DNA of 64,000 bases from assembly GCA_020353055.1 (NCBI GenBank), contig CP070686.1, forward strand, positions 1,056,625-1,120,624, read 5' to 3'. Source of the stretch: a candidate division WOR-3 bacterium (GTDB lineage Bacteria; Hydrothermota; Tepidihabitantia; SM23-42). Of the stretch, positions 9,909 through 63,076 are shown one piece after another. Position numbers and translations under genes: made by a program. Every line of letters starts with the position of its first letter. Position 1 is the first letter of the stretch. The notes under the pieces were generated by a model. That model had not been told where the DNA came from and did not search any database. It saw only the letters and a list, made by a program, of their open reading frames with translations.

Positions 9909-10342
9909 AAAGCAACCCCGACCCAAAGATAATCGCATTTTGCTGTAACTGGTGTTCCTATGCTGGAGCCGACGCTGCCGGAACCTCGAGGCTCCAAATG
10001 AAACCGCATTTCAGAATTGTTCGAGCCATGTGTTCAAGCCGGATCGACCCGGAATTGATCCTCGATGCGTTGAAGAAAGGTGCCTGGGGTGTATTAGTGG
10101 CCGGTTGTCATCCGGGCGACTGTCATTATGTAACCGGTAATTATCGTACCCACAAAAGAATCGCATTGCTCAAGGACCTGCTAAAAGAACTGGGCATAGC
10201 ACCACAAAGGGTAAGGCTGGAGTGGATCTCGGCAAACGAAGGTGGCAAGTTCCAAAAAGTCGTCAACGAATTCATCGATGAAATGTCCGTACTGGGGCCA
10301 CTTGAATTGAAAGGACAGCCAGCCGCCAAGGAGGCATCATGA
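9905..10342 (+). CDS. mvhD: Methyl-viologen-reducing hydrogenase delta subunit homolog (MvhD)
   Basis: FCCNWCSYAGAD ... GCHPGDCHY signature of the MvhD family. Translationally coupled to its neighbours by ATGA overlaps. Confidence 0.85.
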   Translation: MKSNPDPKIIAFCCNWCSYAGADAAGTSRLQMKPHFRIVRAMCSSRIDPELILDALKKGAWGVLVAGCHPGDCHYVTGNYRTHKRIALLKDLLKELGIAPQRVRLEWISANEGGKFQKVVNEFIDEMSVLGPLELKGQPAAKEAS

Positions 10343-10743
10343 TCAAGAAGATCGAGATCTCACCCGAGAACGAGAAGTTCCTGAAAAAAGTCAATGAGCT
10401 CAGTGGGCAGGTCATCACTCTCTGCGAACAATGTGGTACTTGTTCGGGTGGTTGCCCCCTTGTCACTGAGATGGACATAACTCCGTCACAGATGATGAGA
10501 ATCGTCCAATTGGGTCAAAAAGAGGTTCTGGATTACAAGGCAATCTGGGTATGTGCTTCATGTTTCACCTGTACGGTCAGGTGCCCGCGCCAAATCGATG
10601 TATCCAAAGTGGCGGAAGCGCTGCGACAGATCATTCTGAGACAAGCCGTAGACCACATCGACATCAAAGCGATCCCTAAAGAGGAAATAGCCTGCCTTCC
10701 ACAAATCGCACTGGTAAGTGCGTGCCGTAAATTCACAGGATAG
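10339..10743 (+). CDS. hdrC: Heterodisulfide reductase subunit C (HdrC), two [4Fe-4S] clusters
   Basis: CEQCGTCSGGCP and CASCFTCTVRCP motifs; about 134 aa. Confidence 0.8.
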   Translation: MIKKIEISPENEKFLKKVNELSGQVITLCEQCGTCSGGCPLVTEMDITPSQMMRIVQLGQKEVLDYKAIWVCASCFTCTVRCPRQIDVSKVAEALRQIILRQAVDHIDIKAIPKEEIACLPQIALVSACRKFTG

Positions 10744-10753
10744 GAGGAAGAAT

Positions 10754-11695
10754 ATGAATACGACCAAAGAAACGAAATCAAAATCGGCGGAAAATATGAA
10801 ATTCCCCTACTACCCCGGATGTACACTAAAAACAACTGCCAAGAATTTCGAAACCTCAGCTATCGCCACGGCACGTGCACTCGGTGTGGAATTACTCGAG
10901 ATCCCGCGGTGGAACTGCTGCGGTACGGTATTCTCGCTTGCTCAAGACGATCTGATCCATCATGTGGCTTCGGTTCGGAATTTCATCAGGGTCCAGGAGA
11001 TGAATGACTATGGGTTGGTCAAGAACGAGAATCGTCTGGTGACTCTGTGTTCAATGTGCTTCAATACTCTGAAGAGCACAAATCGCCGCATGAAGGATAA
11101 TGCGGAAGATCTAAAAAAGATCAACGATCTCATGTATCGAGAGGAAGATTACAAGGGTAGTGTTGAAGTACTGCATTTCCTCGAACTCCTAAAATCGCTG
11201 GGCTACGACAAGATTCGGGATAAGGTAACCAAACCTCTGAAGGACCTGAAAATCGCGCCCTATTACGGCTGCATGATCTTGCGGCCCAAGGAGATAGCGA
11301 TAGACGACCCGGAAGATCCGACAATCCAAAAAGACCTTCTTGAAGCTCTCGGCGTGTCTGTCATTGATACACCGTATAAGAAGGTGTGTTGTGGAAGTTA
11401 TCAAACCGTCAAGGACAAGTATATAGTTGCTGAGTTGGCATATGACATACTCTCTCATGCGCGCAAAAAAGGCGCAGAGGCACTGACCACGGTCTGTCCC
11501 CTGTGCGCTTTCAATCTTGACCAACGCCAGCAGGCCGTAAAGGAAAAACATCCTGATTTCGAAGAAATGCCCGTCTTCTACATAACCCAATTAATGACCA
11601 TCGCCTTCGGTTTGAACAAAGAAGTATATGGTTTTGAACAGAATTACGTTGATCCAAAGCCGTTGCTCAAAAGCAAATCATTGATCGAAGATTAG
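10754..11695 (+). CDS. hdrB: Heterodisulfide reductase subunit B (HdrB), two CCG domains
   Basis: CCG-domain motifs (WNCCGTVF, KVCCGSY). AGGAGG RBS then ATG at 10754. Confidence 0.8.
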   Translation: MNTTKETKSKSAENMKFPYYPGCTLKTTAKNFETSAIATARALGVELLEIPRWNCCGTVFSLAQDDLIHHVASVRNFIRVQEMNDYGLVKNENRLVTLCSMCFNTLKSTNRRMKDNAEDLKKINDLMYREEDYKGSVEVLHFLELLKSLGYDKIRDKVTKPLKDLKIAPYYGCMILRPKEIAIDDPEDPTIQKDLLEALGVSVIDTPYKKVCCGSYQTVKDKYIVAELAYDILSHARKKGAEALTTVCPLCAFNLDQRQQAVKEKHPDFEEMPVFYITQLMTIAFGLNKEVYGFEQNYVDPKPLLKSKSLIED

Positions 11696-14224: not shown

Positions 14225-15430
14225 ATGAAAGCAGATAAGAGCGGCGTGTTAACCGGCTCTCATATTCTCAGCGGCAACGAGGCGTGCGCAGAAGGAGCCT
14301 TGGCAGCCGGCTGTCGTTTCTTGGGACTTTACCCTATTGTGCCTTCATTAGAGGTTTCGAAGAGATTCCTCCAGCGAGCGCCGGAAGTTGGCGCAACCTT
14401 TATCCAGATGGAAGATGAAGTGTCTGCCCTCGCTGCAGTTTTGGGCGCATCCTGGACCGGCAAAAAATCAATGACTGTAACATCAGGTCCGGGTTTCTCG
14501 CTCATGATGGAGCATCTCGGACTCGGCGTTATGTTGGAGACACCATGCGTGATCGTGGAAATCCAGATGGTCGGTCCGGGTCTTGGACTGCCGACCCGCC
14601 CCGCACAGGGAGATATCATGCAGTCCCGCTGGGGTTCTCATGGTGACTACGAGATAATCGCGTTCGCGCCTAGCTCGGCCCAGGAAATGTTTGACTTCAC
14701 TATCAAAGCATTCAATCTATCGGAACGTTATCGCGTTCCCGTCGCTCTCATGTCAGATGCATATGTCGCTCAACTAAAGGAAAAAGTCGCCATCCCTTCT
14801 GCCGACCAAATTAACATCGAACCGCGCCGATACTACGGTGGACCACGCGATAGTTACCTCCCATTCAAGAGGGATGAGGACTTTGTCCCGCCAATGGTGG
14901 ATATCGGGCAAGGCTACCGCTTTCACGTGACCGGTCTGACTCATGACGACCGGGGTTATCCAATCATGTTCGAAGAATGCCAGGAGTATAACGTTCACCC
15001 GCTGGTCAGAAAAATACGAGACTTCACTGACAAAATAATTGATATCGAGGAAAAGAATACCAATGATGCAGAAGTAGTTATTATTTCATACGGAGTGTCC
15101 TCGCGCGCTTCGCTCAAAGTGGTCGAACAGGCACGCAGCAAGGGACACAAGGTAGGCAGTCTAAAGCTGAACACGGTATGGCCATTCCCCGAAAAGAGAG
15201 TGGCCGAACTCGCAAGTCAGGTAAAGGCGTTTGTGGTCCCCGAGATGAACTTCGGTCAAGTAGTTCAAGAAGTGGAACGGAGCGCATATGGAAAAGCAAA
15301 TATCTTCTTTCTCACTCATGGCGATAACGGAGTTGAATATGCCGGAGATATCCTTGCCGCAGTTGAGGAAGCCTCTCAAATGAAAGAAACAAAATGTGGT
15401 ATCACTGAGTGGAAGAAACGGAGTGCATAA
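14225..15430 (+). CDS. korA: 2-oxoacid:ferredoxin oxidoreductase alpha subunit (KorA/PorA-like), copy 1
   Basis: Typical alpha-subunit sequence (GxYPIxPS ..., GPGFSLM, QSRWGSHGDYE). Note YPIVPS instead of the canonical YPITPS. Confidence 0.8.
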   Translation: MKADKSGVLTGSHILSGNEACAEGALAAGCRFLGLYPIVPSLEVSKRFLQRAPEVGATFIQMEDEVSALAAVLGASWTGKKSMTVTSGPGFSLMMEHLGLGVMLETPCVIVEIQMVGPGLGLPTRPAQGDIMQSRWGSHGDYEIIAFAPSSAQEMFDFTIKAFNLSERYRVPVALMSDAYVAQLKEKVAIPSADQINIEPRRYYGGPRDSYLPFKRDEDFVPPMVDIGQGYRFHVTGLTHDDRGYPIMFEECQEYNVHPLVRKIRDFTDKIIDIEEKNTNDAEVVIISYGVSSRASLKVVEQARSKGHKVGSLKLNTVWPFPEKRVAELASQVKAFVVPEMNFGQVVQEVERSAYGKANIFFLTHGDNGVEYAGDILAAVEEASQMKETKCGITEWKKRSA

Positions 15431-16308
15431 TGGCAACCCAGAAAGTTAATACAAACAAAGACATACATCCCATGGAAAACCTGCTCCGCATGGACCGGAT
15501 GCCACACATCTGGTGCCCGACCTGCGGAATCGGACTCGCCGTCACCGCATTCACCGCGGCTCTCGAAAAGGCAAATATCGATCCCAATATGGTGAGCATT
15601 GTCTCGGGAATTGGCTGCACTGGTAGAGTGGCTGGCTATGTGAAGGTCGATTCCTTTCACACGACACATGGCCGACCGATCGCTTTTGCCACGGGTATCA
15701 AAGTCGCAAATCCAAAGATGAAAGTCGTTGTGTTCTCGGGCGATGGTGACTTGATCGCGATCGGCGGAAATCATTTCATACATGCGGCGCGCCGCAATAT
15801 CGATATGCTGGTCGTCTGTGTTAACAACTTCATCTATGCAATGACCGGCGGTCAGGTGGCACCGACCACACCCCTGGCTGCCTATGCTACGACTTCACCG
15901 TACGGCTGTGTCGAACCACCCTTCAACATTCCTTATCTGGCTGACTCATCTGGCGCAGTATATGTAGCAAGATACACGGCATTGCACATCCGAAGGTTGA
16001 CCAATGCTTTGACTGAAGCCTTGAACAAAAAAGGATTTTCCGTCGTTGAGGTAATCTCACCGTGCGGCATGTATTATTCGCGAATCAACCGACTCGGCGA
16101 TGGACTCGAGATGATGAAATTCTATCATGATAATGTGGAAATAAAACACGGTGAAGACACGAAGAACCTGGAAATTGGATTTCAAAGCAAGATTATCTGC
16201 GGCAAGTTCGTTGACCGTGAAAGACCTTCCTACATGGAACGATACAATCAATGGCTTTCTGAAGTAAGAGCTTCAGCTAAGAATCCCGAAGGGAAAAAGG
16301 GAGCATAA
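15430..16308 (+). CDS. korB: 2-oxoacid:ferredoxin oxidoreductase beta subunit (KorB, TPP-binding), copy 1; canonical
   Basis: WCPTCGIG and GIGCTG Cys ligands, GDGD...NN TPP-Mg motif, TGGQ. TAATG overlap with the upstream gene. Confidence 0.8.
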   Translation: MATQKVNTNKDIHPMENLLRMDRMPHIWCPTCGIGLAVTAFTAALEKANIDPNMVSIVSGIGCTGRVAGYVKVDSFHTTHGRPIAFATGIKVANPKMKVVVFSGDGDLIAIGGNHFIHAARRNIDMLVVCVNNFIYAMTGGQVAPTTPLAAYATTSPYGCVEPPFNIPYLADSSGAVYVARYTALHIRRLTNALTEALNKKGFSVVEVISPCGMYYSRINRLGDGLEMMKFYHDNVEIKHGEDTKNLEIGFQSKIICGKFVDRERPSYMERYNQWLSEVRASAKNPEGKKGA

Positions 16309-16309
16309 C

Positions 16310-17551
16310 GTGAAAGCTGATCAAAAGAGCGTGCTGACCGGTGTCTACTACATAGATGGAGATGTTGCTGCGGGCTATGGTGCTCTGGCCGCGGGCTGTA
16401 AATTCGTGGCCGGTTATCCGATCACCCCATCAACGGAAGCATTTGAAGCAGTCTGCCACCGCGGACCAAAAGTCGGAACTGTGTTTATTCAGATGGAAGA
16501 TGAACTGGGTTCAATTTCGGCCATACTTGGCGCTGTGTGGTCAGGAGTCAAGACAATGACCATAACCTCTGGTCCCGGGTATTCGCTGATGCAAGAAGCA
16601 ATTGGCTTCGGAGCGATGCTCGAGACACCTTTTGTCCTGCTCAACATTCAGCGCGGCGGTCCCTCCACCGGTGTGCCGACCAAGACTGGTCAGGCAGACA
16701 TGATGCAGTCCCGGTGGGGCTCACACGGAGACTATGAGGTCATCGCCATTGCACCAGATTCGCCGCAGGAGATGTTCGATTATACGATCAAAGCGTTCAA
16801 TCTCGCCGAGAAGTACCGCTGCCCGGTCATGATAATGTCCGATGAATGCGTTGGTCATATGACCGAAAAAGTCGTTATCCCGGACGCTGACAAAATTTAC
16901 GTTGAACCAAGAAGATTCTATACCGGTCCGGCCGCGGATTACAGACCATACAAACCTGATCCAGACCTGGTGCCCAAAATGGCAAAGGCTGGCGAAGGGC
17001 TGAATCTGTACATAACCGGAATCGTTCATGACGAAAACGGATATCCAGTCAGTGATGAAAAATACAAGAGCATTTATGTAAAAAGATTAGTTGATAAGAT
17101 ACGGCTCAATAAAAACGAAATTATTGAATTGAAGGAAGAAGGAACAGACGGTGCAGATGTGATCGTTGTCTCCTATGGAATATCGTCGCGCGTCGCGGTC
17201 AAGGGTGTAGAAATGGCCAGACAAAAAGGTGTAAAGGTCGGAACGCTGCGGCTCGTTACGGTATGGCCATTTCCTGATGACCGAATCAATGAACTCGCGA
17301 AGAAAACAAAGGCCTTTGTCGTTCCGGAGATTAACTATGGACAAGTGGTTTACGACGTTGCCCGCTGCGCACACGGTCACGCCAGTGTTGTACTCGTTCC
17401 CCATGGAGGTGCTGGTGTACACAACCCCGATGACGTCGCCGATGCAATCGAATTCGCCGTCAAACAAGAGAAACCACTGGAAGGCGTTCATGAATTCAAA
17501 ACGAGGCTTGAGAAATCAGTGTTTGAGGGAGGGTTCAAATTAAAGGAATGA
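16310..17551 (+). CDS. 2-oxoacid:ferredoxin oxidoreductase alpha subunit, copy 2 (GTG start)
   Basis: Paralog of copy 1 with the canonical YPITPSTE motif. Confidence 0.8.
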   Translation: MKADQKSVLTGVYYIDGDVAAGYGALAAGCKFVAGYPITPSTEAFEAVCHRGPKVGTVFIQMEDELGSISAILGAVWSGVKTMTITSGPGYSLMQEAIGFGAMLETPFVLLNIQRGGPSTGVPTKTGQADMMQSRWGSHGDYEVIAIAPDSPQEMFDYTIKAFNLAEKYRCPVMIMSDECVGHMTEKVVIPDADKIYVEPRRFYTGPAADYRPYKPDPDLVPKMAKAGEGLNLYITGIVHDENGYPVSDEKYKSIYVKRLVDKIRLNKNEIIELKEEGTDGADVIVVSYGISSRVAVKGVEMARQKGVKVGTLRLVTVWPFPDDRINELAKKTKAFVVPEINYGQVVYDVARCAHGHASVVLVPHGGAGVHNPDDVADAIEFAVKQEKPLEGVHEFKTRLEKSVFEGGFKLKE

Positions 17552-18324
17552 ATTCAATAATCGAGGCAATTCATAAGGGCATTGAAAAATCCGGTGTCGA
17601 TCGGAAGAAAATCAGTATTCCATCCGACATACCTTTTGAGCCAGAGACGGTGAAATCGCTGGGAGTCGATTATTTCCAGGTACCACGCGGACGCGCAATA
17701 GCCTTTGGCTCAGGATTGAAATTAGGCAACCCGGATCTCAAAGTTATTCCGGTCGTCGGTGATCTCATGACACTCGGTGGAAATCATTTTGTACACGGAA
17801 CGAGAAGAAACATGGAACTCCTCGTTCTTTGTATCAATAATTTCGTCTACCATAAGATCGCCGGCAAATCAGTTTCAGTGGTGACTGAAGCATTCTCACC
17901 TTACTCTACGTTCGAAGAACCTTTCAATTTTCCCCACCTTGGTAATTCCTGCGGAGCAGTTTATACGGCACGATGGACGGCTTTGCACACAAGCGAACTC
18001 GCCGAGTCTATCGCCGAGGCGCTGCACAAACGTGGCATGTCGATGATCGAAATTCTGGCGCCCGGCCCCAGTTACTACAGATACATTACTCATCTCGACT
18101 CGGAACTGATGCAGTTCTATTTTGATAACTCAATTTTGAAGAACAACGAAGACCCTCGGAACGTGGCAATAACGGCAGACAAAAAAATAGTCGTCGGAAA
18201 ATTCACCGACAAGGAACGGCCAACCTTCATTGACTCATACAATACTCAACACAAGAAAATACTCGGTGATGAATTCACTCCTCATGGACCGGTTTTTGAC
18301 AAAGCAGGAGGTGGAAATGGCTGA
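17548..18324 (+). CDS. Degenerate beta-subunit paralog of 2-oxoacid:ferredoxin oxidoreductase. It lacks the Fe-S Cys ligands and the GDG TPP motif.
   Basis: Aligns to KorB copy 1 (GRAIAFGSGLKLGNPDLKV..LGGNHFVH..RRNMELLVLCINNFVY), but has VVGD for GDGD, no CxxC, KIAGKS for TGGQ, and APGPSYY for SPCGMYY. Confidence 0.65.
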   Translation: MNSIIEAIHKGIEKSGVDRKKISIPSDIPFEPETVKSLGVDYFQVPRGRAIAFGSGLKLGNPDLKVIPVVGDLMTLGGNHFVHGTRRNMELLVLCINNFVYHKIAGKSVSVVTEAFSPYSTFEEPFNFPHLGNSCGAVYTARWTALHTSELAESIAEALHKRGMSMIEILAPGPSYYRYITHLDSELMQFYFDNSILKNNEDPRNVAITADKKIVVGKFTDKERPTFIDSYNTQHKKILGDEFTPHGPVFDKAGGGNG

Positions 18325-18883
18325 AATTAGATTCGCCGGTTATGGGGGTCAAGGGATCATAAGATCCGGGATAATCGCCGGCAAAGCAGCGTCGATCTTC
18401 GATAGCAAGTATGCAACCATGAGTCAATCATTCGGGCCGGAAGCGCGTGGCGGTGCATGCAGCTCGCAGCTCGTCATATCCGAGAGCAAGGTCTTGTACC
18501 CGTACATCACAAATTCTGACGTCCTGATTGCCATGTCCCAGGCAGGGTATGATAAGTTTGAATCAGAAATGGGTGAAGAGGCAATGTTGTTGTACGATGA
18601 GGACCTCGTTAAACCCAAATCGTCACGCGGGAAAATCCTCGCCTACGCCATACCGGCAACACGGTTCGCTGAAGAATTGGGTATCAAGATCGTTGCGAAC
18701 GTTGTCATGCTTGGTTTTTTCACCGCCATTACCCATCTGGTCACCTATGAAAGCATGAAGAAGGCTCTGCCTGGCCTTGTCCCGGAGAAGGCATTGCCAC
18801 TGAACTTAAAAGCTTTCGAACGCGGTTATGAATATGGAAATGAGCTCTTAACCAAGAAACAATCAGATAAAGGAACGAAATAA
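18317..18883 (+). CDS. 2-oxoacid:ferredoxin oxidoreductase gamma subunit (KorC/PorG-like)
   Basis: MAEIRFAGYGGQGIIRSGIIAGKAA signature. AGGAGGTGG RBS before ATG 18317. Confidence 0.8.
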   Translation: MAEIRFAGYGGQGIIRSGIIAGKAASIFDSKYATMSQSFGPEARGGACSSQLVISESKVLYPYITNSDVLIAMSQAGYDKFESEMGEEAMLLYDEDLVKPKSSRGKILAYAIPATRFAEELGIKIVANVVMLGFFTAITHLVTYESMKKALPGLVPEKALPLNLKAFERGYEYGNELLTKKQSDKGTK

Positions 18884-18886
18884 ACT

Positions 18887-21800
18887 ATGCCAAAAGGAGC
18901 ACTCGTCATTGGTGGAGGTGTGGCTGGGGTTCAGTCCGCATTAGATTTGGCGAACGCTGGTTTCAAGGTTTTCCTTGTCGAGCGTGGCCCATGTTTGGGC
19001 GGTCGAACATCCCAGATTCACAAAATCTTCACCTCGATGGACTGTACGGGCTGAATCCTCGGCCCTAAACTAATGGATGTCGGTCGACATCCGAATATTG
19101 AGATTTTTGCCAACAGCGAAGTTGTTGGCGTCGAGGGTGAAGCACCGGATTTCAAAGTGAAGGTCAGGCGCAAATCCACATTTGTCGATTGGGACAAATG
19201 TACTGGCTGCGGGGAGTGTCCGACTGTCTGTCCGGTCCACATCAAAGATGAGTTTCAATTAGACCTTTCAAAACGAGAGGCAATTTATCGTCGGTATCCC
19301 CAAGCAGTGCCTAATAAATTTCTCATCGACAAAAGGGGCTCGCCGCCGTGTCGATACTCCTGTCCTGCAGGAGTCAATGCTCAGGGATATATCGCGCTCA
19401 TTTCACAGGGCAAATATAAAGAAGCTTTGGAACTTGAACGGAGAGACAACCCGTTCCCGGCGGTCTGCGGACGTGTCTGCACTCACCCTTGTGAATCAGA
19501 CTGCAAGCGAAAAGACGTGGACGAACCGCTGGCCATTGCCCAGCTCAAACGTTTCATTTCGGACAGTGAGCAGGAACTCTCAGCACCGAGCCCTGAATTG
19601 AACAAGGAGAAGGTTGCCGTCGTGGGCGCCGGCCCTGCAGGCCTTTCTGCCGCATATTTCCTTGCCAAGAGAGGATACTGCCCGACCGTCTTTGAAGCCA
19701 CTGACCATCCAGGCGGGCTGCTGTACTGGGCAATACCGAGATTCAGATTGCCGGAGATCGCGCTGCAGCGCGATCTGGATTACATAAAGAGTTGGGGTGT
19801 TGAGATCAAGACGGGTACTGCATTAGGCAAAGATCTTAGTATCAAAGACCTTCAACAGGATTACAAGGCGATCTTCCTCGGACTTGGCGCGGCCAAAGAA
19901 AAAACAATGGGCATAGAAGGCGAAGATCTGCAGGGCGTCTCTCTGTGTGTTGAATTTCTAAATAAGGCGGTCCACGATCCTGAGACGCCGGTAGGCAAAA
20001 GGGTCGCCGTGGTCGGCGGCGGTAATTCTGCAATAGATGCGGTGCGTACCGTGTTGCGTCTTGGCGCCGAAGAAGCATTCGTCGTATATCGCCGCTCACG
20101 CCAGGAGATGCCCGCAAACGAAGAAGAGATCGTCGAGGCGGAGAAAGAGGGAATCAAGATCCATTACCTGACCAATCCAACAAAGATATTTGGAGAAGAT
20201 GGCAAAATCAAGGGCATGGAATGCATCAAGATGAAACTGGGCGAACCTGATTCTTCAGGCCGAAGGAAACCAATACCCATCGAAGGTTCTGAATTCACCA
20301 TTAATCTGGATATGGTGATAATGGCGATCGGTCAGGCAGCCGATGTTTCATTCCTCACCAAAGAAGAAAAATTCGAGTTAACGCGCTGGGGAACCTTTGC
20401 CGTGGATCCAGACACCCTGCAAACGAACATCCCTGGTATCTTTGCCGGTGGTGATGCGGTGACCGGACCAGCCACAGTTATCGAGGCGATTGCTGCGGGG
20501 AAAGAAGCCGCAGAATCGATCGACCGCTTCATCAGAGGTGTCGATCTGAAAGCAGACAGAAAAAAGAAAGAAGATCGCGTCAAAGATGAAGATATCGAAA
20601 TCCCGGAAGAATTACAAACTGAGAAGAGAACGACGATGCCATTGCTGGATCTGGAAAAAGCGAAGAAGAGTTTCGAAGAAGTCGCCCAAGGATTCTCCGA
20701 AGAACAGGCTAAAAAAGAATCAGATCGATGCCTGAGCTGTGCAGGCTGCTCAGAATGTCTCGAATGCGTGAAGGTATGCGAACCAAATGCCATCGTGCAC
20801 GACATGGTGGACGAATTTGTGGACCTGGACGTGGGCTCGATCATCGTGACCACCGGTGTCGACTATCTCGATCCTAAAGAGGCAAGTGAATACGGATACA
20901 AACGCTTCAAGAATATCTATACATCTTTTGAAATTGAACGGATCATGAGCGAAGACGGCCCGAGTGCCGGCGAACTTCCCCTTGGCAAACAATTAAAGGA
21001 GCCGTTACGTTTCGCATTCATCCAATGCGTTGGATCGCGTAATATGCGCCATGACATCAACTATTGCAGCCGCATTTGTTGTATGAACACGATAAAAGAC
21101 AGTCTGGTCCTTAAAGAACACTACCCTGACGCAAATATTGTCGTATTCTATATTGACATTAGAGCCTTTGGAAAGGGATTTGAAGAATTTTATAATCGGT
21201 CCCTCGAAAAGGGTGTGAAATATATCAAGGGTAAACCATCAAAGGTGATTGAGGATGGCTCGGGAAATTTGGTTATTCATTATGAAAACGAACAGGGACA
21301 CTCAGGCCAAATGATATTCGATGCCGTATGTCTCTCTTCAGCGCTGATTCCGTCAAGGGGCTGCAGAGAATTGGCCGGCGTGCTCGGCGTCGATATCGAC
21401 GATGATGGTTTTTACAAAAACATGGAACCGGCAACCGCACCGCTTGAGTCAACGAAAAAAGGCGTTCTGGTATGCGGTTGCGCAACAGGTCCTAAGGACA
21501 TTACCGATTCGATCGCCGAGGCGAGCGGTGCCGCGGTTAAGGCAGCATGTTTCTTGGAGGGCCATGAACTGCCGGTCGAGAAAAAGGAAATCGAACAAGT
21601 CGATGTGTCCGGTCCACCGAGAGTCGGTGTCTTTGTCTGCCATTGCGGCCCGAATATTTCAAAGGTTGTCGATGTCAAAGGCGTAGTTGAATACGCGAAG
21701 ACTTTACCGGATGTGGTATTCGCCGAGGATTATACGTTCGCCTGTTCTGAAACAGCCCAACACCAGATTCAAGAGAGGATAGCCGAACACAAACTGAACA

Positions 21801-23284
21801 GGGTTGTTGTCGCCGCCTGTACACCCAAGACGCATGAAATGAGCTTTCAAGATTCATTAACTGCCGTCGGTCTCAATCCGTACCTCTTCGATATCGCGAA
21901 CATCAGGAATCAATGCTCCTGGGTACATCAGAAAGAACCAGAAAAGGCAACCGAGAAAGCAAAAGAATTAGTCAGGATGTCGGTGGCGCGTGTTCGAAAA
22001 CTAGGTCCGCTCTTCATGAAAGAACTGTCGGTTAACCGCGATGTCGCTGTCATCGGCGCTGGTATCACCGGCCTGCGATGCGGTATTGATTTGCTCCAGC
22101 GGGGCTTTAAGGTCAAAATAATTGAGAAAAAAGAATTATCAGGCGGTCTGGTACGGCATCTCTCCAGCATCTATCCCAGCTTCCGGAAAGGAAGGAATAT
22201 TGTCGAGAAACTTCTCGATGAATTCACCAGTGCGGGCGGCGAACTTCTGACTTCAACAGAACTTGTGGATGTCACCGGTTATGTAGGTAACTTCCAGGTT
22301 AAGGTGAAGAGTGCAAAAGGAGAGACCGAATTCACGGTGGGCGCTATCGTTCTCGCCACGGGGTCAGAACTCTATGATCCAGGCGAGCGCTTTGGCTACG
22401 GTAAATATCCCAATGTCATCACCAACATGGAATTAGAACAAAAACTAATATCGGGTGAAATCGACGATATAAAATCCGTTGCCTTTTTCCAGTGCGTCGG
22501 CTCGAGGGGTGACGACGGTAATCCCGGATGTTCTCGCTATTGCTGTCAGGCAGCAATAAAAGAAGCCATTCATTTAAGAGAAAAAGGGATCGATGTTGCT
22601 ATTCTCAACCGCGGTGTCAGGGTTTATTCAAAAGGCGCCGAGCGGATGTACCGCAAGGCAAGGGAACTCGGCGTCCTATTCTTACCGTACGATGGAGAAC
22701 CAGAGATCACCGGAGCCGATAAGGCGGAAGCGGTCACGATCCCGTCACCAGATATCGATGCCGACATTACCATCCCGGTTAACCTCGTTGTGCTTTCGGT
22801 AGGCATGGTCCCGGCTGCCGATTCAGGACATCTTTCAGAGTTATTTAAGGTCCCGCGTGGGCCTGATAAGTTCTTCCTGGAACGTCACTCGAAATTCGGT
22901 CCGGTAGAAACAACGGTTGAGGGCGTGTTCTTATGCGGTTGTTGTCAGTTCCCGCAGGATATCGGAGATTCGATATCCCAGGCTTCGGCTGTGGCATCGA
23001 AGGTTGCCGCGCTGCTTAGCCGTGACAAGATCACGCTGGCACCCATAACATCTACGGTCATCGAAGAATACTGCCGTGGCTGTGGCAGGTGCGCTGAAGT
23101 ATGCGAATTCCGCGCGATAGAATTGGTTGAGAAGGAAAACGGCGTTTTCGTTGCGCAAGTTAACGAAGCGCTGTGCAAAGGTTGCGGGACGTGCGTCGCG
23201 GCATGCCCAACCGGTGCCATCGACCTCAAACATTTCAGAAGTGAACAGATCGAGGCCCAATTGGAGGCGCTGTTTGAAGGATAA
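18887..23284 (+). CDS. HdrL-like giant heterodisulfide-reductase-A fusion (HdrA half with a GltD/NfnB-like NAD(P)H domain insert, plus a second complete HdrA). It contains an in-frame UGA at 19052-19054 read as selenocysteine. The ORF track splits it into 18887-19054 and 19073-23284.
   Basis: ATG 18887 is 3 nt after the korC stop. N-term [21 protein letters not shown]...[23 protein letters not shown] is colinear with HdrA FPTEDCAACILSPKM (the TGA sits at the second Cys). Both pieces are in the same frame. GltD-like CxxC clusters and [32 protein letters not shown](P)H folds; second [11 protein letters not shown] HdrA module. Confidence 0.75.
19075..19092 (+). promoter_or_regulatory. Putative bacterial SECIS hairpin (GGATGTCGGTCGACATCC) 21 nt downstream of the UGA
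   Basis: Perfect inverted repeat. Identical sequence at the same distance from the second UGA (27093-27110). Absent from the Cys-form hdrA. Confidence 0.5.
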
Positions 23285-23346: not shown

Positions 23347-23853
23347 ATGAAACAATCGGTTAAGAAAATAAAAGAACGATCCGATCACTCAACGGTTCAA
23401 CGATCCAAGGAAACCTTCGAGCCTAAGATCGTTGCCTTCTGCTGCAACTGGTGCTCATACCCGGCAGCAGACGGTGCGGGCGTCTCCAGGCTGCAATACC
23501 CCACGAATATCAAGATCGTCAGGGTAATGTGCGGCGGCCGCGTGACGCCATCCTTCGTCCTGAAGGCTTTCGAGTTGGGTGCAGACGGCGTTCTGGTTGC
23601 CACCTGCCATTTCGAGGACTGCCACTACATGTTTGGAGCGCGGAAGGCTGCGGATGTGCACAAGGTAACTGAGAAACTCACCGAGATGCTCGGCATCGAG
23701 AAAGAACGTCTCAAACTCGACTGGATCTCATCGGCCGAAGCGTCGAAATTTGCCAGGGTTGCCCGGGAATTCACCGAAACGATTAGAAAACTCGGACCGT
23801 CTACTATAAAGAAGAAGTTGGACGCCCTCAACGAAAGCATTGAAGATGAATAG
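23347..23853 (+). CDS. mvhD: MvhD homolog, second copy
   Basis: FCCNWCSYPAADGAG ... TCHFEDCHY. Confidence 0.85.
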   Translation: MKQSVKKIKERSDHSTVQRSKETFEPKIVAFCCNWCSYPAADGAGVSRLQYPTNIKIVRVMCGGRVTPSFVLKAFELGADGVLVATCHFEDCHYMFGARKAADVHKVTEKLTEMLGIEKERLKLDWISSAEASKFARVAREFTETIRKLGPSTIKKKLDALNESIEDE

Positions 23854-24994
23854 CAAGATCGCCAAAGCCATCAAGGATTCGAAGGCATATTTATGCATGG
23901 AATGCGGTAAGTGCACTGGAACCTGTCCGGTCTCACGATATAACCATGGATATTCTCCACGCATCCTCGTGAACAAAGCGATAAGGAGTGGCGATCTTAA
24001 TTTATTGAAGGACAAAAATATCTGGGCGTGCCTGACCTGTAAATTGTGTGATGAACGTTGCCCTGCTGGCATCGAATACATCGATCTTACACTCACGACG
24101 CGTCTCGAAGCAAAGAAAATAGGAGAGCAAGCGCTCTGCTCTCATGGTGGCGCGGCGCAATCGCTGATGCGCATCATGACAACACCAGAGCTCGAGCAAA
24201 AACGACTCGATTGGATCGACCAAACTCTGAAAACAACACAAAATGGTGAAGTGCTATATTTTGTTGGCTGTCTCCCCTACTTCGACGTTCTGTTCAGCGA
24301 TATAAACGTCAACACCCTGCAAGCGGCAAAGGCGAGTATAAAGATTCTCAATCGGTTAGGTGTCACTCCGGTCGTACTGCCCCAGGAAAGATGTTGTGGG
24401 CATGATCTTCTCTGGAGCGGCGACATGGAGAACTTCGAGAAACTGGCACGGCACAATATCAGAGAAATAAAAAAATCCGGCGCCAAGAAGATCGTTTTTT
24501 CGTGTCCTGAAGGTTACCGGACATTCAAAATCGATTATCCAAAGTATTTCAATACTGATTTTGAGGTCGAACATATCACTGAAGTAATAAGTCGGGCCAT
24601 TTCCAACGGCGAGCTCAAATTAAAGAATCTGAAAAAGGTCGTTACGTTTCAGGATCCTTGCCGGCTCGGCAGGCACCTTGGAATCTACGATGAACCAAGG
24701 AAGGCCATTACCGCAATACCCGAAATACAATTGAACGAGATGGCGAGGAGCCGACAGCGTGCGATATGCTGCGGCGTTAGCGCATGGATGAACTGCTCGA
24801 CCTATTCAAAGAGCATTCAGCGAGCACGGCTTACAGAAGCAAAGGACACAAAGGCTGATCTGCTGGTTCTTTCCTGTCCTAAATGTGAAATTCATTTCCA
24901 GTGTGCTATGCATGACGAAAAAGCAGGCGAGCAAGCGAAAATTGAAACGGTCCAATTGGTCACTATGATTGCAGATGCACTGGAGGGTGAGTAA
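23840..24994 (+). CDS. HdrD-like fused HdrC/HdrB protein (N-terminal 2x[4Fe-4S], C-terminal CCG domains)
   Basis: CMECGKCTGTCP and CLTCKLCDERCP, then CCG motifs (ERCCGHD, AICCGVS). Confidence 0.75.
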   Translation: MKMNSKIAKAIKDSKAYLCMECGKCTGTCPVSRYNHGYSPRILVNKAIRSGDLNLLKDKNIWACLTCKLCDERCPAGIEYIDLTLTTRLEAKKIGEQALCSHGGAAQSLMRIMTTPELEQKRLDWIDQTLKTTQNGEVLYFVGCLPYFDVLFSDINVNTLQAAKASIKILNRLGVTPVVLPQERCCGHDLLWSGDMENFEKLARHNIREIKKSGAKKIVFSCPEGYRTFKIDYPKYFNTDFEVEHITEVISRAISNGELKLKNLKKVVTFQDPCRLGRHLGIYDEPRKAITAIPEIQLNEMARSRQRAICCGVSAWMNCSTYSKSIQRARLTEAKDTKADLLVLSCPKCEIHFQCAMHDEKAGEQAKIETVQLVTMIADALEGE

Positions 24995-25494
24995 TGGCTA
25001 AAGAAAAAATACAAGTTGATTTTCGGTTTCGCGATAAACTCAACAAAGTGCAGGGAGGCAAGCACCATAATTACTGCTACCAGTGCAGCGCGTGTGTTGC
25101 CGTCTGCCCCGCGGCACGATTCACCGAAGAATTCAATCCCCGCGTGATCTTACTGAAGGCACTGCTTGGTATGGAGGAAGCACTCACTGGAGAAGATTCA
25201 CCTATCTGGCTTTGCACAAACTGCTATTCATGTTACGAACGCTGTCCACAAGATGTGCGTCCCATCGAGGTAATTATCGCCTTGAAAAACATGGCCGTGC
25301 AGCGACAGAAAGCACCGGCAAGCCTCGCCAAACTCTCAGACAATATCGCCAAAACCGGAGTCAGCGTCACCGTGACTTCGGCAGTTAACAGACGAAGACA
25401 GGAGTTGGGTCTCCCTCCGATTAAGACAATACCGATCGAAGAGTTGAAAGAGATCCTGGAAGACCCGCAAGGAGCGGCAAAGGACAGTGAATAG
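24994..25494 (+). CDS. hdrC: HdrC-like iron-sulfur subunit, second copy
   Basis: CYQCSACVAVCP and CTNCYSCYERCP. TAATG coupling to the upstream gene. Confidence 0.75.
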   Translation: MAKEKIQVDFRFRDKLNKVQGGKHHNYCYQCSACVAVCPAARFTEEFNPRVILLKALLGMEEALTGEDSPIWLCTNCYSCYERCPQDVRPIEVIIALKNMAVQRQKAPASLAKLSDNIAKTGVSVTVTSAVNRRRQELGLPPIKTIPIEELKEILEDPQGAAKDSE

Positions 25495-25497
25495 ATT

Positions 25498-26382
25498 ATG
25501 AAAGTGATTCCTTTTTGGGGATGTATGATGCCCCTCAAATATCCACAGATGGAACTGGCGATCAGAAAGACTCTTCCTAATCTCGGTATCGAACTCGTGG
25601 ATATCGACGGTTTCACGTGCTGCCCCGATCCCATCTATTTCAAAGCCCGGGACAAGATCAAGTGGCTCACCATTGCCGCACGCAACCTGGCAATTGTCGA
25701 GGAAAAGGGTCTTGATGTCATCACCATGTGCTCGGGGTGTATTTCGACTTTAAAAGAAGCAAAATACACGCTCGACGAAGACCCCCAGGCGAAAGAAGAA
25801 GTAAACCGGCGGTTGAGAAAAGTGAATAGGGAATACAAGGGTACCGCAAAGATAAATCACGCGGTCGTTCTGATCAGAGACAGCCTCGGACTGGATGTCG
25901 TGAAGAAATCAATAAAACGGCCGCTCGAGGGCGTGACAGTTGCGATCCACTATGGTTGTCACATACTGAAACCGAGCCAGATCATGCACGTCGATGACGC
26001 CGATTATCCAAGCATCCTAGATGACTTCGTCTCCGCGATGGGCGCAACACCCCTTGACCATAAAGAAAAACTCCTGTGCTGTGGTAAGGGATGTATGGAC
26101 GAGGACCTCCCCCTCGAAATGACCGAGACTATTTTTGCGTCTATAGAAGAGAGTGGCGCCGATTGCATGGGGCTGGTGTGCCCGACGTGTTTCTCTTCAT
26201 TTGATTTAGGACAAATAATGATTTCCCGCAAAAAGGGGAAAACCTACAATATTCCCGTCATCTACCTGTTTCAACTCCTCGGCCTCGCACAGGGGCTGGA
26301 GCCTGAACAAGTAGGTCTCCACACTCATCGGGTAAAGGCAGATCGAGTGTTGGAAAAAATAAAAGGAAGTGCAAAAGTATGA
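25498..26382 (+). CDS. hdrB: HdrB-like CCG-domain subunit, second copy
   Basis: CCPDP and CCGKGC CCG-domain motifs. Confidence 0.8.
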   Translation: MKVIPFWGCMMPLKYPQMELAIRKTLPNLGIELVDIDGFTCCPDPIYFKARDKIKWLTIAARNLAIVEEKGLDVITMCSGCISTLKEAKYTLDEDPQAKEEVNRRLRKVNREYKGTAKINHAVVLIRDSLGLDVVKKSIKRPLEGVTVAIHYGCHILKPSQIMHVDDADYPSILDDFVSAMGATPLDHKEKLLCCGKGCMDEDLPLEMTETIFASIEESGADCMGLVCPTCFSSFDLGQIMISRKKGKTYNIPVIYLFQLLGLAQGLEPEQVGLHTHRVKADRVLEKIKGSAKV

Positions 26383-26475: not shown

Positions 26476-28935
26476 ATGCCGCAGGATGATTTGAAAATCG
26501 GCGTTTTTATTTGCGAATGTGGTACAAACATCGCTGGCTCAGTTGATGTCGACAGTGTCGTTGCGAACGCCAAGAAGACAGGTAATGTCGTGTACAGCAC
26601 GAAGAGCCGCTACATGTGTTCGGAACCCGGTCAGGCAGAAATAAAGAAGGCAATAAAAGAGGAGAAACTCGACAGGGTAATCATCGCAGCGTGTTCACCG
26701 CGTATGCACGAACCAACCTTCAGGGAATGTGTCGCCTCGGTCGGCATGAATCCATATCTGGTTGATATGGCAAATATCCGGGAGCAATGCTCATGGGTTC
26801 ATATGGGTAACCGTGAAGCAGCAACAAAGAAAGCTAAAGATATCATGAAGGCATACGTTGCGCGAGCACGATACCTGCAACCGCAGGAGGAAAAGGAAAT
26901 CCCGGTCGAAAGAGCAACATTGATAATCGGCGGTGGGATTGCTGGGATGCAGTCGGCACTCGACCTGGCCGACGCAGGTTACCAGGTATACCTCGTCGAG
27001 AAAGAACCGTCACTGGGTGGTTTGATGTCCAAACTGGCTAAGACATATCCTACCATGGATTGCGCGATATGAATACTCGGCCCGAAGATGATGGATGTCG
27101 GTCGACATCCCAATATCAAGCTTCTGACCAACAGCAAAGTCGAGGCGATAAAAGGCTATGTCGGCAACTTCGACGTTAAGGTACTCAAGAAGACGCGCTA
27201 TGTAGACGAAACTCAGTGTACCGCATGTGGTGATTGCGCCGAAGTGTGCCCGGTTGTCGTTCCGGATGCTTACCAGCAGGGGCTATCATCAAGAAAAGCT
27301 ATTTATATTCCATTCCCCCAGGCCGTGCCATCGGCATCTCTGATCGATATGGAAAGTTGTCTGGGCACCAATCCAATTGCCTGCGGCAAGTGCGCCGACA
27401 AGTGTGACAAGAAATGTATTGACTACGATGCAAAAGACGAAACGATCGAATTCAAGGTCGGTACCGTTATCGTGGCAACGGGTATGGATGTATTTGACCC
27501 GGTGATTCTGGAAGAATACGGTTATACAAAACACGAAAATGTTGTTACGAGCATGGAGTTTGAAAGATTGCTGTCTGCTGGAGGACCCTCTGACGGACAC
27601 TTCATCCGTCCGACCGACCGGCAGAGGCCAAAGACCGTCGGTTTTGTCCAATGCGTTGGTTCGCGCTGCGAAAAGATCGGCAAACCCTACTGTAGCAATA
27701 TCTGCTGCATGAACACGATCAAGGACACGCTACTATTGAAAGACCACTATCCCGACATACAGGCAAAGGTTTTCTACATCGACATCAGGGCTTTTGGTAA
27801 GGGTTTCGAGGATCTGTTCAAACGAAGCAAAGAGGCGGGTGTACAATACATCAGAGGTATTCCCGGAGAGATCACCGAAGACCCCAAGTCCCGTAATCTG
27901 AAGGTTATGGTCGAAGATACTACTTCTAACAAAATAGAAGAACATGAATTTGACATGATGGTTCTCTCTGTCGGAGTGACACCAAGATTAGATATGCCCG
28001 AGGTTCAACAATTACTGACGCTGTCAAAAACGCCCGACGGTTTCTTTATGGAAGCACACCCGAAACTCAAACCAGTGGATGCACCGTCTACCGGCATTTA
28101 TTTTGCAGGCTGTGCCGAGGCGCCGAAGGATGTTAAGGATTCGGTGACCCAGGCGAGCGCAGCAGCGGCCAGAGCCGAAACACTACTATCAGCAGGAAAG
28201 GTCAAATTGGAAGCGATCACGTCCACGCTGGACACTGCTCTATGCCGGTATTGTGCAACGTGTTCCAGGGTATGTCCTTATGGAGCCTTCACCGTTGACC
28301 CGAAAAAGAAAACGATTTCCTACATCGATGCCCTTTGCAAAGGTTGCGGCACATGTGCCGCCGAGTGCCGGTTTGGCGCACTGACAATGAAACACTTCAC
28401 CGATGAACAGATTGTAACTCAAATCGACGCCCATCTCGCCGAAGATCCTGGGGAAAAAGTAATCGTCTTTGCCTGTAACTGGTGTTCTTATGCAGGTGCC
28501 GATACCTGCGGTGGCGCACGGCTTCAGTATCCACCTAACCAGCGTTTGATCAGAACAATGTGTAGTGGCAGGGTAGATGAAAAATTCGTGCTGCATGCGT
28601 TCAGGAAAGGTGCCCCAATGGTTGTCGTATCCGGATGCCATTACGTCGACTGCCACTATATCGATGCGAACCGCTGGACCCAGAAGAGAGTCGAAAAACT
28701 TTGGGATAAATTCGAAAAATGGGGAATTAGACCCGAGAGATTGCTGCTCGAATGGATAAGTGCTGCAGAGGGACAACGGTTTCAAAAAACCATGCAGGAT
28801 ATCGAAGAACTGAGAAAGAAAGTAACAAAAGAAGAGATCGAACAAACAGTAAAGATCCTGACCGAAGAAGAAGAAAAAGATAAGGCAAAAGCTAAGAAGA
28901 AACAAGCTGACAGTCCAACAAAAAAGAAATCGTGA
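26476..28935 (+). CDS. hdrA: HdrA-MvhD fusion protein with an in-frame UGA (27070-27072) read as selenocysteine. The ORF track splits it into 26452-27072 and 27088-28935.
   Basis: GGGGGTGA RBS then ATG 26476. [51 protein letters not shown] (UGA at the Cys position of CAACIL). C-terminal FACNWCSYAGAD...GCHYVDCHY MvhD domain and a Lys-rich tail. Confidence 0.8.
27093..27110 (+). promoter_or_regulatory. Putative SECIS hairpin (GGATGTCGGTCGACATCC) 20 nt downstream of the UGA
   Basis: Identical to the hairpin after the HdrL UGA. Confidence 0.5.
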
Positions 28936-49970: not shown

Positions 49971-49973
49971 TTG

Positions 49974-51084
49974 GTGAACAAGCCGTCCGACACGAATGTC
50001 GTAACCATCGACGAGATAAAGAAACTCAAGACTAGATTCGATGGTCTGAAGGAGCATCTTTGACCTTCAGAAACTCGAACAAGAACTAAAGAAGCTACAG
50101 AAAAGAACCTCCAATCCGGAATTCTGGGCGAATAAAACCGAAGCCCAGAAGATAATGTCTGAAATAAACGAAAAACAATTCTGGCTTCAATCAGTAGAGA
50201 CAATAGGTTCTGACATCGAACTCCTTGCTGGTTTGATAGAATTGGAGGAAATAGACGACAAAATGCTTGCTGAAGCGACCCACGAAGCAAAGAAGGTCGA
50301 GGGGAAGTTGAGGGATATCGAGTTGAAATTACTACTGGGTAAAGAGGATGACATGAAGAACTGCATCCTGACGATTCACCCGGGTGCCGGAGGTACAGAA
50401 TCCTGCGATTGGGCTGAGATGTTAATGCGTATGTATATGCGATGGTTTCAGATGAAAGACTTCACCCACCGGATGCTTAATTTCCTGCCAGGGGATGTTG
50501 CCGGCATAAAGGATGCTACTATTGAAGTAGTGGGTAAATATGCGTACGGCTTACTGAAAGCAGAGGTGGGTATTCATCGGTTAGTACGAATATCACCCTT
50601 CGATTCGAACGCGCGGCGTCATACGTCCTTTGCCTCGGTATTTGTCTACCCTGAAGTCGAAGATGTCAGCGTTGAAATCAATGATGATGACCTGCGAATA
50701 GACACATACCGGGCGGGCGGCCACGGCGGACAGAATGTGAACAAAGTCTCTTCCGCAGTCAGGATCACACACATCCCGACTGGAATCACGGTTCAGTGCC
50801 AAAATGAACGCTCACAATTTCAAAATAAAAACAATGCGATGAAAATATTACGGTCTCGGCTTTACGATTACTATCAAAAACAAGAAGATGAGAAGCTTGC
50901 AAAATTAAACAAGCAGAAAACAGAGATCGCCTGGGGACATCAAATACGTTCCTATGTATTTCACCCGTACAAACTCGTCAAGGACCATCGTACAGACTAC
51001 GAAACATCCCAGGCCGACAAGGTCATGGATGGCGAAATAGATGATTTCATACATGCCTATCTCAGCATGAAGGCAGAAATCTAG
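49974..51084 (+). CDS. prfB: Peptide chain release factor 2, translated via programmed +1 frameshift at CTT-TGA-C (50058-50064). Frame 0 covers 49974-50060 and frame +1 covers 50062-51084.
   Basis: GAAGGAG RBS then GTG 49974. Short frame-0 ORF ending ...GLKEHL-TGA with an upstream SD-like AAGGAG. The downstream frame encodes SPF and GGQ motifs. Confidence 0.85.
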
Positions 51085-61318: not shown

Positions 61319-61339
61319 ATGAACTCTAAAACCAATTAC

Positions 61340-63058: not shown

Positions 63059-63076
63059 AGGAACTCCAGAAACGGA

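Follow-up and report, generated by a model that had tools for sequence, protein, structure and literature searches.

A conserved in-frame UGA in the giant HdrA fusion HdrL of a candidate division WOR-3 bacterium is predicted to encode selenocysteine

Introduction

Where does translation end in a giant relative of hdrA whose reading frame meets a TGA after only 55 codons? The gene, called hdrL below, lies in a 64,000-nucleotide stretch of the genome of a candidate division WOR-3 bacterium (assembly GCA_020353055.1, contig CP070686.1, positions 1,056,625 to 1,120,624 of the forward strand). This whole stretch is referred to as the window, and positions are counted from its first letter. The codon could terminate a short peptide, mark a damaged gene or an error in the assembly, be read as a standard amino acid, or encode selenocysteine (Sec). 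The comparisons presented here favour the last answer: TGA 19052-54 is predicted to be the selenocysteine codon of a 1465-residue HdrL, with a probability that we put at about 0.93.

Results

The UGA of hdrL falls on a known selenocysteine position of HdrA

Two open reading frames (ORFs), 18887..19054 (55 aa, ending in TGA) and 19073..23284 (1403 aa), share a common frame. The translation of 18887-23284, 1465 codons in all, contains a single internal stop, TGA 19052-54, after which the frame remains intact for 4.2 kb. A first-pass annotation of the window had taken the two ORFs for one gene split at this TGA, with both halves in frame and colinear with HdrA, and its coordinates and description proved correct. 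The Cys-form hdrA of the same window (7959-9908), which is colinear with both halves of HdrL, reads FPTEDCAACILSPKMADV / TFPTEDCAACILSPKMADV at the aligned motif.

The residue encoded by the UGA was located by alignment with HdrA proteins of known structure. Residues 4-150 of HdrL aligned without any gap to residues 145-291 of the M. thermolithotrophicus HdrA (5ODC_A), so that residue 56 of HdrL is the equivalent of Cys197. This agrees with the earlier placement of the UGA at the second Cys of the DCxxC motif, which had been made by comparison with the Cys-form hdrA. An alignment with the Sec-containing HdrA of Methanococcus had also been proposed as a check; in it, the UGA of hdrL fell on residue 197 of 9SFI_A, which is printed as X (DCAMXILAPK). 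The predicted Sec56 thus occupies the second Cys position of the motif (D-C-x-x-U), just past the FAD-binding Rossmann fold.

The whole window was scanned for in-frame stops that have long open frames on either side, and only two cases were credible, TGA 19052-54 and TGA 27070-72. As the only other case shows the same motif, the position of the first is not due to chance. The second TGA interrupts a hdrA-mvhD fusion gene (26476-28935), which lies 8 kb downstream of the HdrL UGA and was absent from the first-pass annotation. Its read-through product scored 1163.7 bits against the NF040770 HdrA2 family (cutoff 1100) and is a full-length member. By motif identity, the UGA occupies the U of D-C-x-x-U, which is the Sec197 position, in both genes of the window. 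UGA 27070-72 of hdrA-mvhD almost certainly encodes selenocysteine as well.

The UGA is kept in relatives and lies between conserved coding sequences

For the comparison with relatives, 163 related loci were fetched as DNA and scanned for the motif, and codons were counted over distinct sequences. Among the matches listed in the genome-contig scan, most were distant relatives (37-53% identity) outside the WOR-3 clade, and the close orthologues came from a metagenome scan and from contig look-ups. Of the distinct sequences, 76 had TGA at the site, 63 had TGC and 45 had TGT. The number of Sec-forms is a lower bound, because the motif pattern missed a fourth split hdrA-mvhD gene in locus L103. The two pieces of that gene (L103 11-496 and 521-2338) match positions 29-189 and 199-775 of the HdrA2 profile. 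Neither TAA nor TAG was found at the motif site in a real frame among the 163 loci. The Cys homologues that align to the UGA comprise 108 distinct TGC or TGT forms, the paralogue 7959-9908 and Cys197 of 5ODC.

TGA forms were present in WOR-3-type HdrL orthologues (L081, L083-85, L088, L089 and others), and also in metagenome-assembled genomes (MAGs) of Desulfobacteraceae, Planctomycetota, Phycisphaerales and Holophagae. Many loci, like the window, contain at least two Sec-type hdrA genes. A protein search gave 33 clusters of homologues sharing 52-90% identity, with lengths of about 1400 aa and with M(M)DVGRHPN, the sequence just past the site, at their N terminus; the names of the sources of these truncated clusters refer to TA06 and to candidate division WOR-3, with SM23_42 as one of the latter. 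Homologues with at most 49% identity were all 1455-1500 aa long and read ...DKTFPTNDC[SA]MC-I[LMI][SA]PK..., with Cys at the position.

Coding sequence is homologous on both sides of the HdrL UGA. When the window was compared with 14 HdrL orthologues, the TGA was kept throughout, and the codons upstream of it (n=52) gave ratios of nonsynonymous to synonymous differences (pN/pS) of 0.02-0.29, with pS of 0.4-0.9, which is near saturation.

These data bear directly on the possibility that a TGC- or TGT-to-TGA change inactivated the gene, or that the codon is a sequencing or assembly error. TGA is indeed one base away from either Cys codon, and the assembly appears to be that of an uncultured organism. 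Neither circumstance accounts for finding the same TGA in two paralogues of the window and, across independent assemblies, in 76 distinct sequences, for purifying selection on both flanks while synonymous sites approach saturation, or for the long intact frame after the TGA, and this explanation is effectively refuted. The first-pass annotation had preferred a Sec codon to a pseudogene, and its preference is upheld by the retention of the TGA in orthologues, by purifying selection upstream of it and by a conserved hairpin downstream, described below.

A hairpin downstream of the UGA is conserved beyond the encoded peptide

The two UGA-containing genes of the window carry an identical candidate hairpin, GGAUGUC-GGUC-GACAUCC, with a 7-bp stem and a GGUC loop, which starts 23 nt after the UGA in each. 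No comparable hairpin was found in the Cys paralogue hdrA 7959-9908. Like the stem-loops of bacterial selenoprotein genes, the hairpin lies a short distance 3' of the UGA, has a G in its apical loop and is conserved in the Sec-forms.

Because the hairpin overlaps the conserved peptide M-D-V-G-R-H-P, synonymous sites were tested, using the 64 distinct Sec-forms that contain D[VA]GRHP. Asp was encoded by GAT and His by CAT in 64/64 sequences, and the third base of the Val or Ala codon was C, again in 64/64 (for comparison, the codon usage of the window is 0.59 for GAT, 0.56 for CAT, 0.32 for GTC and 0.12 for CGA). Val-GUC was paired with Arg CGA (31 sequences) or CGG/AGG (10 sequences), Ala-GCC was paired with Arg CGG in 23/23 cases, and a C·A mismatch was never seen. 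The same synonymous sites vary in the few Cys-forms that share the peptide.

An alignment of 69 sequences was then scored for base pairing. In the proposed register, 96.1% of cells were paired; no slid register exceeded 57.6%. Pair 29-36 was UA in 31 sequences, CG in 26, UG in 11 and another combination in one, which makes one compensatory pair, and the observed covariation score was reached by none of 500 shuffles (0/500). The mean folding energy of nt 13-52 was -12.2 kcal/mol for the Sec-forms, versus -5.9 kcal/mol for the Cys-forms (p = 1e-24). In these alignments, the frozen synonymous sites and the compensatory pair appear as the pattern that a selenocysteine insertion sequence (SECIS) imposes and that amino-acid conservation alone does not.

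Sec-hdrA and Sec-hdrL genes of the Desulfobacteraceae type (…NDCAM*IISPKLVEVGRH…) have another hairpin, CUGGUCG-AGGU-CGGCCGG, starting 18 nt after the UGA (L010 3068; L016 10154 and 1688; L074 2226; L091 555; L154 8074 and 4016). With two distinct hairpins at one Sec site, two SECIS solutions can be distinguished. The hairpin of the Sec-hdr cassette is common to WOR-3, Planctomycetota and Acidobacteriota, which hints that the cassette, sometimes with an embedded selB, moves between phyla as a unit.

The same region was considered for a restart of translation. In a split gene, the UGA would end a 55-aa peptide (a Rossmann beta-alpha-beta unit), translation would restart at ATG 19073 to give 1403 aa, and the two products would assemble non-covalently. 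An ATG does lie six codons past the TGA, and in relatives the gene is entered as 55 + 1403 aa by gene callers and by NCBI. However, a Shine-Dalgarno sequence was found before the true starts but before neither ATG 19073 nor ATG 27088. Among the 76 distinct Sec-forms, 18 lack an ATG within 10 codons of the TGA, and most of those lack any start-like codon within 19. In every lineage, moreover, the break would coincide exactly with the Cys/Sec197 codon, at the cost of one residue of the conserved CxxC pair, and a split gene would leave the invariant synonymous sites of the hairpin and its compensatory pair unexplained. We consider a split gene highly improbable.

UGA is a normal stop elsewhere in the window, and selB accompanies the genes in relatives

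Another explanation is that UGA is read as a standard amino acid (Trp, Gly or Cys), either genome-wide or in this context, without selenium. Such reassignments are established for some uncultured bacterial lineages, and no Sec machinery was detected in the window. The use of UGA as a stop codon speaks against such a reading: the 44 genes of the window end in TGA (18), TAA (16) or TAG (10), and the window encodes a prfB with a UGA-dependent autoregulatory frameshift site, of which the ORF finder gives only the downstream part, 50155-51084. UGA being a normal stop, genome-wide reassignment (genetic codes 4/25) was excluded. Furthermore, the in-frame UGA occurs only at a single redox-Cys position, already known as a Sec site, and relatives carry selB alongside these genes. 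A reading as a standard amino acid is very unlikely.

The link with selB was seen in two loci. In L103, whose HdrL is 60% identical to that of the window, a true selB (2389-4311; TIGR00475, 331.9 bits, cutoff 242.25) lies among four Sec-type hdrA genes. In L159 (GCA_030613445.1), the order is a split hdrA-mvhD, selB (2413-4332), an HdrL called as 83 aa + 1413 aa (65% identical) and mvhD. The presence of selB inside Sec-hdrA/hdrL clusters suggests that such a cassette of selenoprotein genes brings along an elongation factor of its own. SelB is also annotated in dozens of WOR-3 MAGs among the matches listed, including contigs of 2.3-2.8 Mb. On CP070795.1, a complete WOR-3 genome discussed below, no SelB was found among the best 120 matches to the SelB of L103 and to a WOR-3 SelB. 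When the window and all loci were searched by tblastn with approximate E. coli SelA, SelB and SelD queries, only SelB matched, in L013, L095 and L103; SelA and SelD were not found with these queries. ARAGORN detected no tRNA of any kind in the window and no tRNA-Sec in the 2.46 Mb of fetched loci.

Several points weigh against a selenocysteine codon, or reduce the force of the evidence for it. ORF annotation, tblastn and ARAGORN did not find selA, selB, selD or tRNA-Sec in the 64-kb window. No match to a SECIS or any other Rfam family was obtained, whether over the whole window at gathering thresholds or over 19000-19160 at E<=10. The hairpin alone is unexceptional relative to shuffled sequences in a 60-nt window (z = -0.46 and -1.47), its support being comparative. 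In that comparison, the sequences are related, so that the covariation counts are not independent events, and the matched codon control is small, with only five Cys-forms that have the exact D[VA]GRHP peptide. As to function, the redox role of Sec197 was left undecided by the authors of the Methanococcus structure (PMC13518236). Finally, the supporting data are all at the level of sequence, and Sec insertion itself, at TGA 19052-54 as at TGA 27070-72, is what we infer from them.

Public annotation cuts hdrL at the predicted selenocysteine codon

The WOR-3 MAG SM23_42 (LJUJ01000006.1) shows full synteny with positions 7.9-33 kb of the window, and its hdrL and hdrA-mvhD genes are both split at the same codons as in the window, the latter into 198 + 601 aa. 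In the complete WOR-3 genome CP070795.1 (L161; 1,898,304 bp), which is syntenic as well, HdrL is 90% identical (L161 9815-14212) and is split into 55 + 1403 aa, with the same TGA and hairpin as its hdrA-mvhD. The hdrA-mvhD orthologue of this genome (L161 17521-19974) is called as a single 817-aa product that includes the TGA at codon 199, and it has evidently been handled as a selenoprotein in the annotation already. The different fates of the two genes are explained by their family scores: hdrA-mvhD passes the NF040770 cutoff of 1100, whereas HdrL reaches 1001 bits, in four stretches, and is left split. By the same score, HdrL is HdrA-related and not a member of the NF040770 family.

HdrL combines two complementary HdrA modules with an NAD(P)H module

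The domain order of HdrL was derived by aligning it with HdrA (Table 1). Module 1 contains the FAD/DCxxU site and lacks the N-terminal cluster domain. It is interrupted, within its inserted-ferredoxin domain, by a module resembling NfnB and GltD, which was recognised by Fer4_20, Pyr_redox_2, the structures 4YLF_B, 5JCA_L and 9N5U_A, and NF009410 (589.8 bits, cutoff 516). In module 2, residues 912-1140 correspond to HdrA 2-231, with the N-terminal cluster domain and a second Rossmann fold without DCxxC, and residues 1143-1461 correspond to HdrA 319-642, with the thioredoxin reductase (TrxR)-like domain and the C-terminal 2x[4Fe-4S] ferredoxin. Module 2 has the N-terminal cluster domain and neither a DCxxC/U motif nor the inserted ferredoxin domain.

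The earlier description of a protein of about 1465 aa, with HdrA, a GltD/NfnB-like domain and again HdrA in this order, therefore holds in outline. It needs correction in that the second HdrA is not full, given the missing inserted ferredoxin domain, and in that the NfnB module lies within module 1, so that the two HdrA modules are complementary rather than a half followed by a full copy.

A tentative reading of this complementarity is that HdrL is a single-chain asymmetric "pseudo-dimer" of HdrA, in which Sec56 would relay in cis to the [4Fe-4S] cluster of the module 2 N-domain, and which NAD(P)H may enter via the inserted NfnB module. We find this arrangement possible, with the odds rather against it. 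If it were true, nature would have provided in HdrL a half-site construct in which the Cys-Sec relay is present exactly once, usable to settle the role of Cys-Sec197 in HdrA-type bifurcation.

Gene neighbourhood

As is characteristic of HdrL, the gene of the window encodes a single large chain that joins HdrA domains to a GltD/NfnB-like module for NAD(P)H binding, and mvhD lies directly after it, an order shared by the relatives. Further Hdr-type subunit genes follow, and hdrA-mvhD comes next (Table 1). The 2-oxoacid:ferredoxin oxidoreductase genes immediately 5' of hdrL are likely a source or sink of ferredoxin. Their tandem order is kept in SM23_42 and resembles the "HdrAL/POR" cluster of Syntrophobacter fumaroxidans (POR, pyruvate:ferredoxin oxidoreductase). 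Between the Cys-type hdrABC-mvhD genes and these oxidoreductases, the segment 11707-14135 encodes an Fe-S protein with 2Fe-2S and 4Fe-4S motifs and a FAD_binding_2 flavoprotein that resembles succinate dehydrogenase or fumarate reductase. Together with the TfrB-like gene 23840-24994, these genes hint at a link of the thiol:fumarate reductase kind.

Farther downstream, 37593-39116, 44743-46425 and 59588-63919 encode the histidine-utilisation proteins HutH and HutU and three consecutive proteins with type IX secretion system (T9SS) C-terminal sorting domains. They are unrelated to HdrL and are consistent with a host of the FCB-group/WOR-3 type.

Table 1. Positions of the features of the window that are discussed in the text.
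Feature	Position	Strand	Remarks
hdrL	18887..23284	+	1465 codons, Sec predicted at codon 56; ATG 18887, preceded by AAAGGAA
In-frame UGA of hdrL	19052..19054	+	predicted Sec56 in motif D-C-T-G-U; aligned to Cys197 of 5ODC and residue 197 (X) of 9SFI
Candidate bacterial SECIS upper hairpin	19075..19092	+	GGAUGUC-GGUC-GACAUCC; stem 19075-81/19086-92, loop 19082-85; overlaps codons M-D-V-G-R-H-P
HdrL residues 1-157 (HdrA 137-291)	18887..19357	+	FAD Rossmann fold, DCxxU, first [4Fe-4S] motif of inserted ferredoxin (C105)
NfnB/GltD-like NAD(P)H:FAD module, residues ~150-630	19334..20776	+	two [4Fe-4S] motifs; inside the inserted-ferredoxin domain of module 1
HdrL residues 617-898 (HdrA 294-579)	20735..21580	+	second inserted-ferredoxin cluster (C621), rest of TrxR-like domain, CVGSR..C..CC
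HdrA module 2, residues 912-1461	21620..23281	+	
hdrA-mvhD fusion	26476..28935	+	819 codons, Sec predicted at codon 199; ATG 26476, preceded by AAGGGGGTGA; NF040770 match
In-frame UGA of hdrA-mvhD	27070..27072	+	same DCxxU motif; from whole-window scan and motif
Second SECIS-like hairpin	27093..27110	+	identical GGAUGUC-GGUC-GACAUCC, after TGA 27070-72
Cys-form hdrA (7959-9908), mvhD, hdrC, hdrB	7959..11695	+	hdrA is the Cys-containing paralogue at the site of the UGA; no hairpin
Two 2-oxoacid:ferredoxin oxidoreductase alpha/beta pairs and one gamma subunit	14225..18883	+	immediately 5' of hdrL
mvhD (FlpD)	23347..23853	+	directly after hdrL
hdrD/TfrB-like	23840..24994	+	2x[4Fe-4S] and two CCG domains
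hdrC-like (24994-25494), hdrB-like (25498-26382)	24994..26382	+	
prfB (release factor RF2)	49971..51084	+	programmed +1 frameshift site CTT TGA C at 50058-64, AGGAG before it; UGA is a normal stop

Discussion

Proposed decoding and function

In the mechanism that we propose, the ribosome would read hdrL as one 1465-residue protein. The hairpin in the coding sequence would recruit the SelB·GTP·Sec-tRNA(Sec) complex, and Sec would be inserted without termination. UGA 27070-72 of hdrA-mvhD would be decoded in the same way via the identical hairpin, giving Sec at codon 199. The SelB step is modelled on established bacterial Sec decoding, from which the binding of SelB to this hairpin is presumed.

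In the folded protein, Cys52 and Sec56 may form a redox pair near the FAD, as the Methanococcus structure would suggest; in the Methanococcus HdrA, the equivalent pair may pass electrons between the bifurcating FAD and the [4Fe-4S] cluster of the N-terminal domain. More speculatively, the partner [4Fe-4S] cluster would probably be provided by module 2, because module 1 is devoid of an N-terminal domain of its own. With MvhD and the HdrD/HdrCB-like subunits, HdrL would probably make up a flavin-based bifurcating or confurcating disulfide reductase linked to NAD(P)H and ferredoxin, the coupling of NAD(P)H, ferredoxin and a disulfide acceptor being suggested by domain content and gene context. 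The adjacent 2-oxoacid:ferredoxin oxidoreductases would feed this complex.

Consequences for annotation

It is chiefly annotation that benefits from recognising the Sec codon. Public genomes and metagenomes of WOR-3 systematically show the gene as two pieces, a 55-aa fragment and a "FAD-dependent oxidoreductase" of 1403 aa; the 33 truncated clusters of homologues include those of SM23_42 and CP070795.1. Reading the codon as Sec gives the protein back its FAD-binding Rossmann fold and its redox CxxU motif. In this uncultured sediment lineage, two predicted selenoproteins thereby join the core of energy metabolism, which implies a requirement for selenium. A covariance model seeded with the hairpin found across phyla, GGAUGYC-GGNN-GRCAUCC at 23 nt after the UGA, could serve to detect genes of this kind and to correct them automatically.

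Comparison with known systems

The SECIS of the E. coli fdhF type is a coding-region hairpin immediately 3' of the UGA, with G/U in the apical loop, and is bound by SelB. The hairpin of the window differs from it in sequence, and consists of a 7-bp stem with a GGUC tetraloop whose start is 23 nt from the UGA.

The closest structural counterpart of the site is found in methanogens. The residue is the same, in the same DCxxU/C motif, as Sec197 of the M. maripaludis HdrA (PDB 9SFI/9T1S), where Sec has been observed experimentally, and as Cys197 of the M. thermolithotrophicus protein (5ODC). In the structure of the M. maripaludis Hdr-Vhu-Fwd complex (2026), Sec197 of HdrA stands beside a Cys, the density runs unbroken from the FAD to cluster A3, and its authors discuss a possible selenenylsulfide relay (PMC13518236). 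The decoding signals differ: Methanococcus uses an archaeal SECIS in the 3' untranslated region, whereas a bacterial-type hairpin lies here within the coding sequence. The alpha subunit of heterodisulfide reductase is included among the selenoprotein families, with motif CxxU, in a 2026 review (PMC13188914). With respect to NF040770, the model named "CoB-CoM heterodisulfide reductase HdrA2" that stands for this HdrA selenoprotein family, the hdrA-mvhD product of the window is a full-length member and HdrL falls below the cutoff.

HdrL was named in Desulfobacterium autotrophicum HRM2, for an HdrA/glutamate-synthase fusion with an NADH-binding site (Strittmatter et al. 2009); in this organism, HdrL1, HdrL3, HdrA1 and HdrA2 are selenoproteins, and every hdrA or hdrL is followed by mvhD (PMC2702500). 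The HdrL of the window resembles HdrL1 and HdrL3 in being a large HdrA/glutamate-synthase-like fusion with an NAD(P)H module, a predicted Sec and mvhD next to it. Sequences were compared with two HdrLs from Desulfobacteraceae/Desulfococcus MAGs (L010 and L016), not with the D. autotrophicum proteins themselves; they share 43% identity over residues 1-1465 and have TGA at the same site. Apart from this moderate identity, the Desulfobacteraceae HdrLs differ in belonging to another phylum and in their CUGGUCG-AGGU-CGGCCGG hairpin. No dsr genes were found in the window.

A further likeness, by description only, is with Syntrophobacter fumaroxidans, where HdrL is associated with MvhD and HdrABC-type subunits, a Hdr cluster includes pyruvate:ferredoxin oxidoreductase, and a confurcating or bifurcating role has been proposed. 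An HdrABC/HdrL complex was detected in its proteome and a HdrAL/POR cluster is encoded (PMC5947623); Sec-HdrA copies are also known from this species (PMC1794560). The proposed acceptor in this sulfate reducer is DsrC, and none is evident in the window. Multiple Sec-HdrA copies in Deltaproteobacteria and Clostridia, as well as hdrA_N-insert-hdrA_C fusions, were reported by Zhang et al. 2006 (PMC1794560).

Selenocysteine at this HdrA position and the HdrL architecture were thus already described in 2006-2009 (PMC1794560, PMC2702500), and the basic biology is not new. The HdrL of the window shares its architecture, predicted Sec position and gene neighbourhood with these earlier cases; it belongs to a different phylum and has a candidate SECIS hairpin that differs from that of the Desulfobacteraceae.

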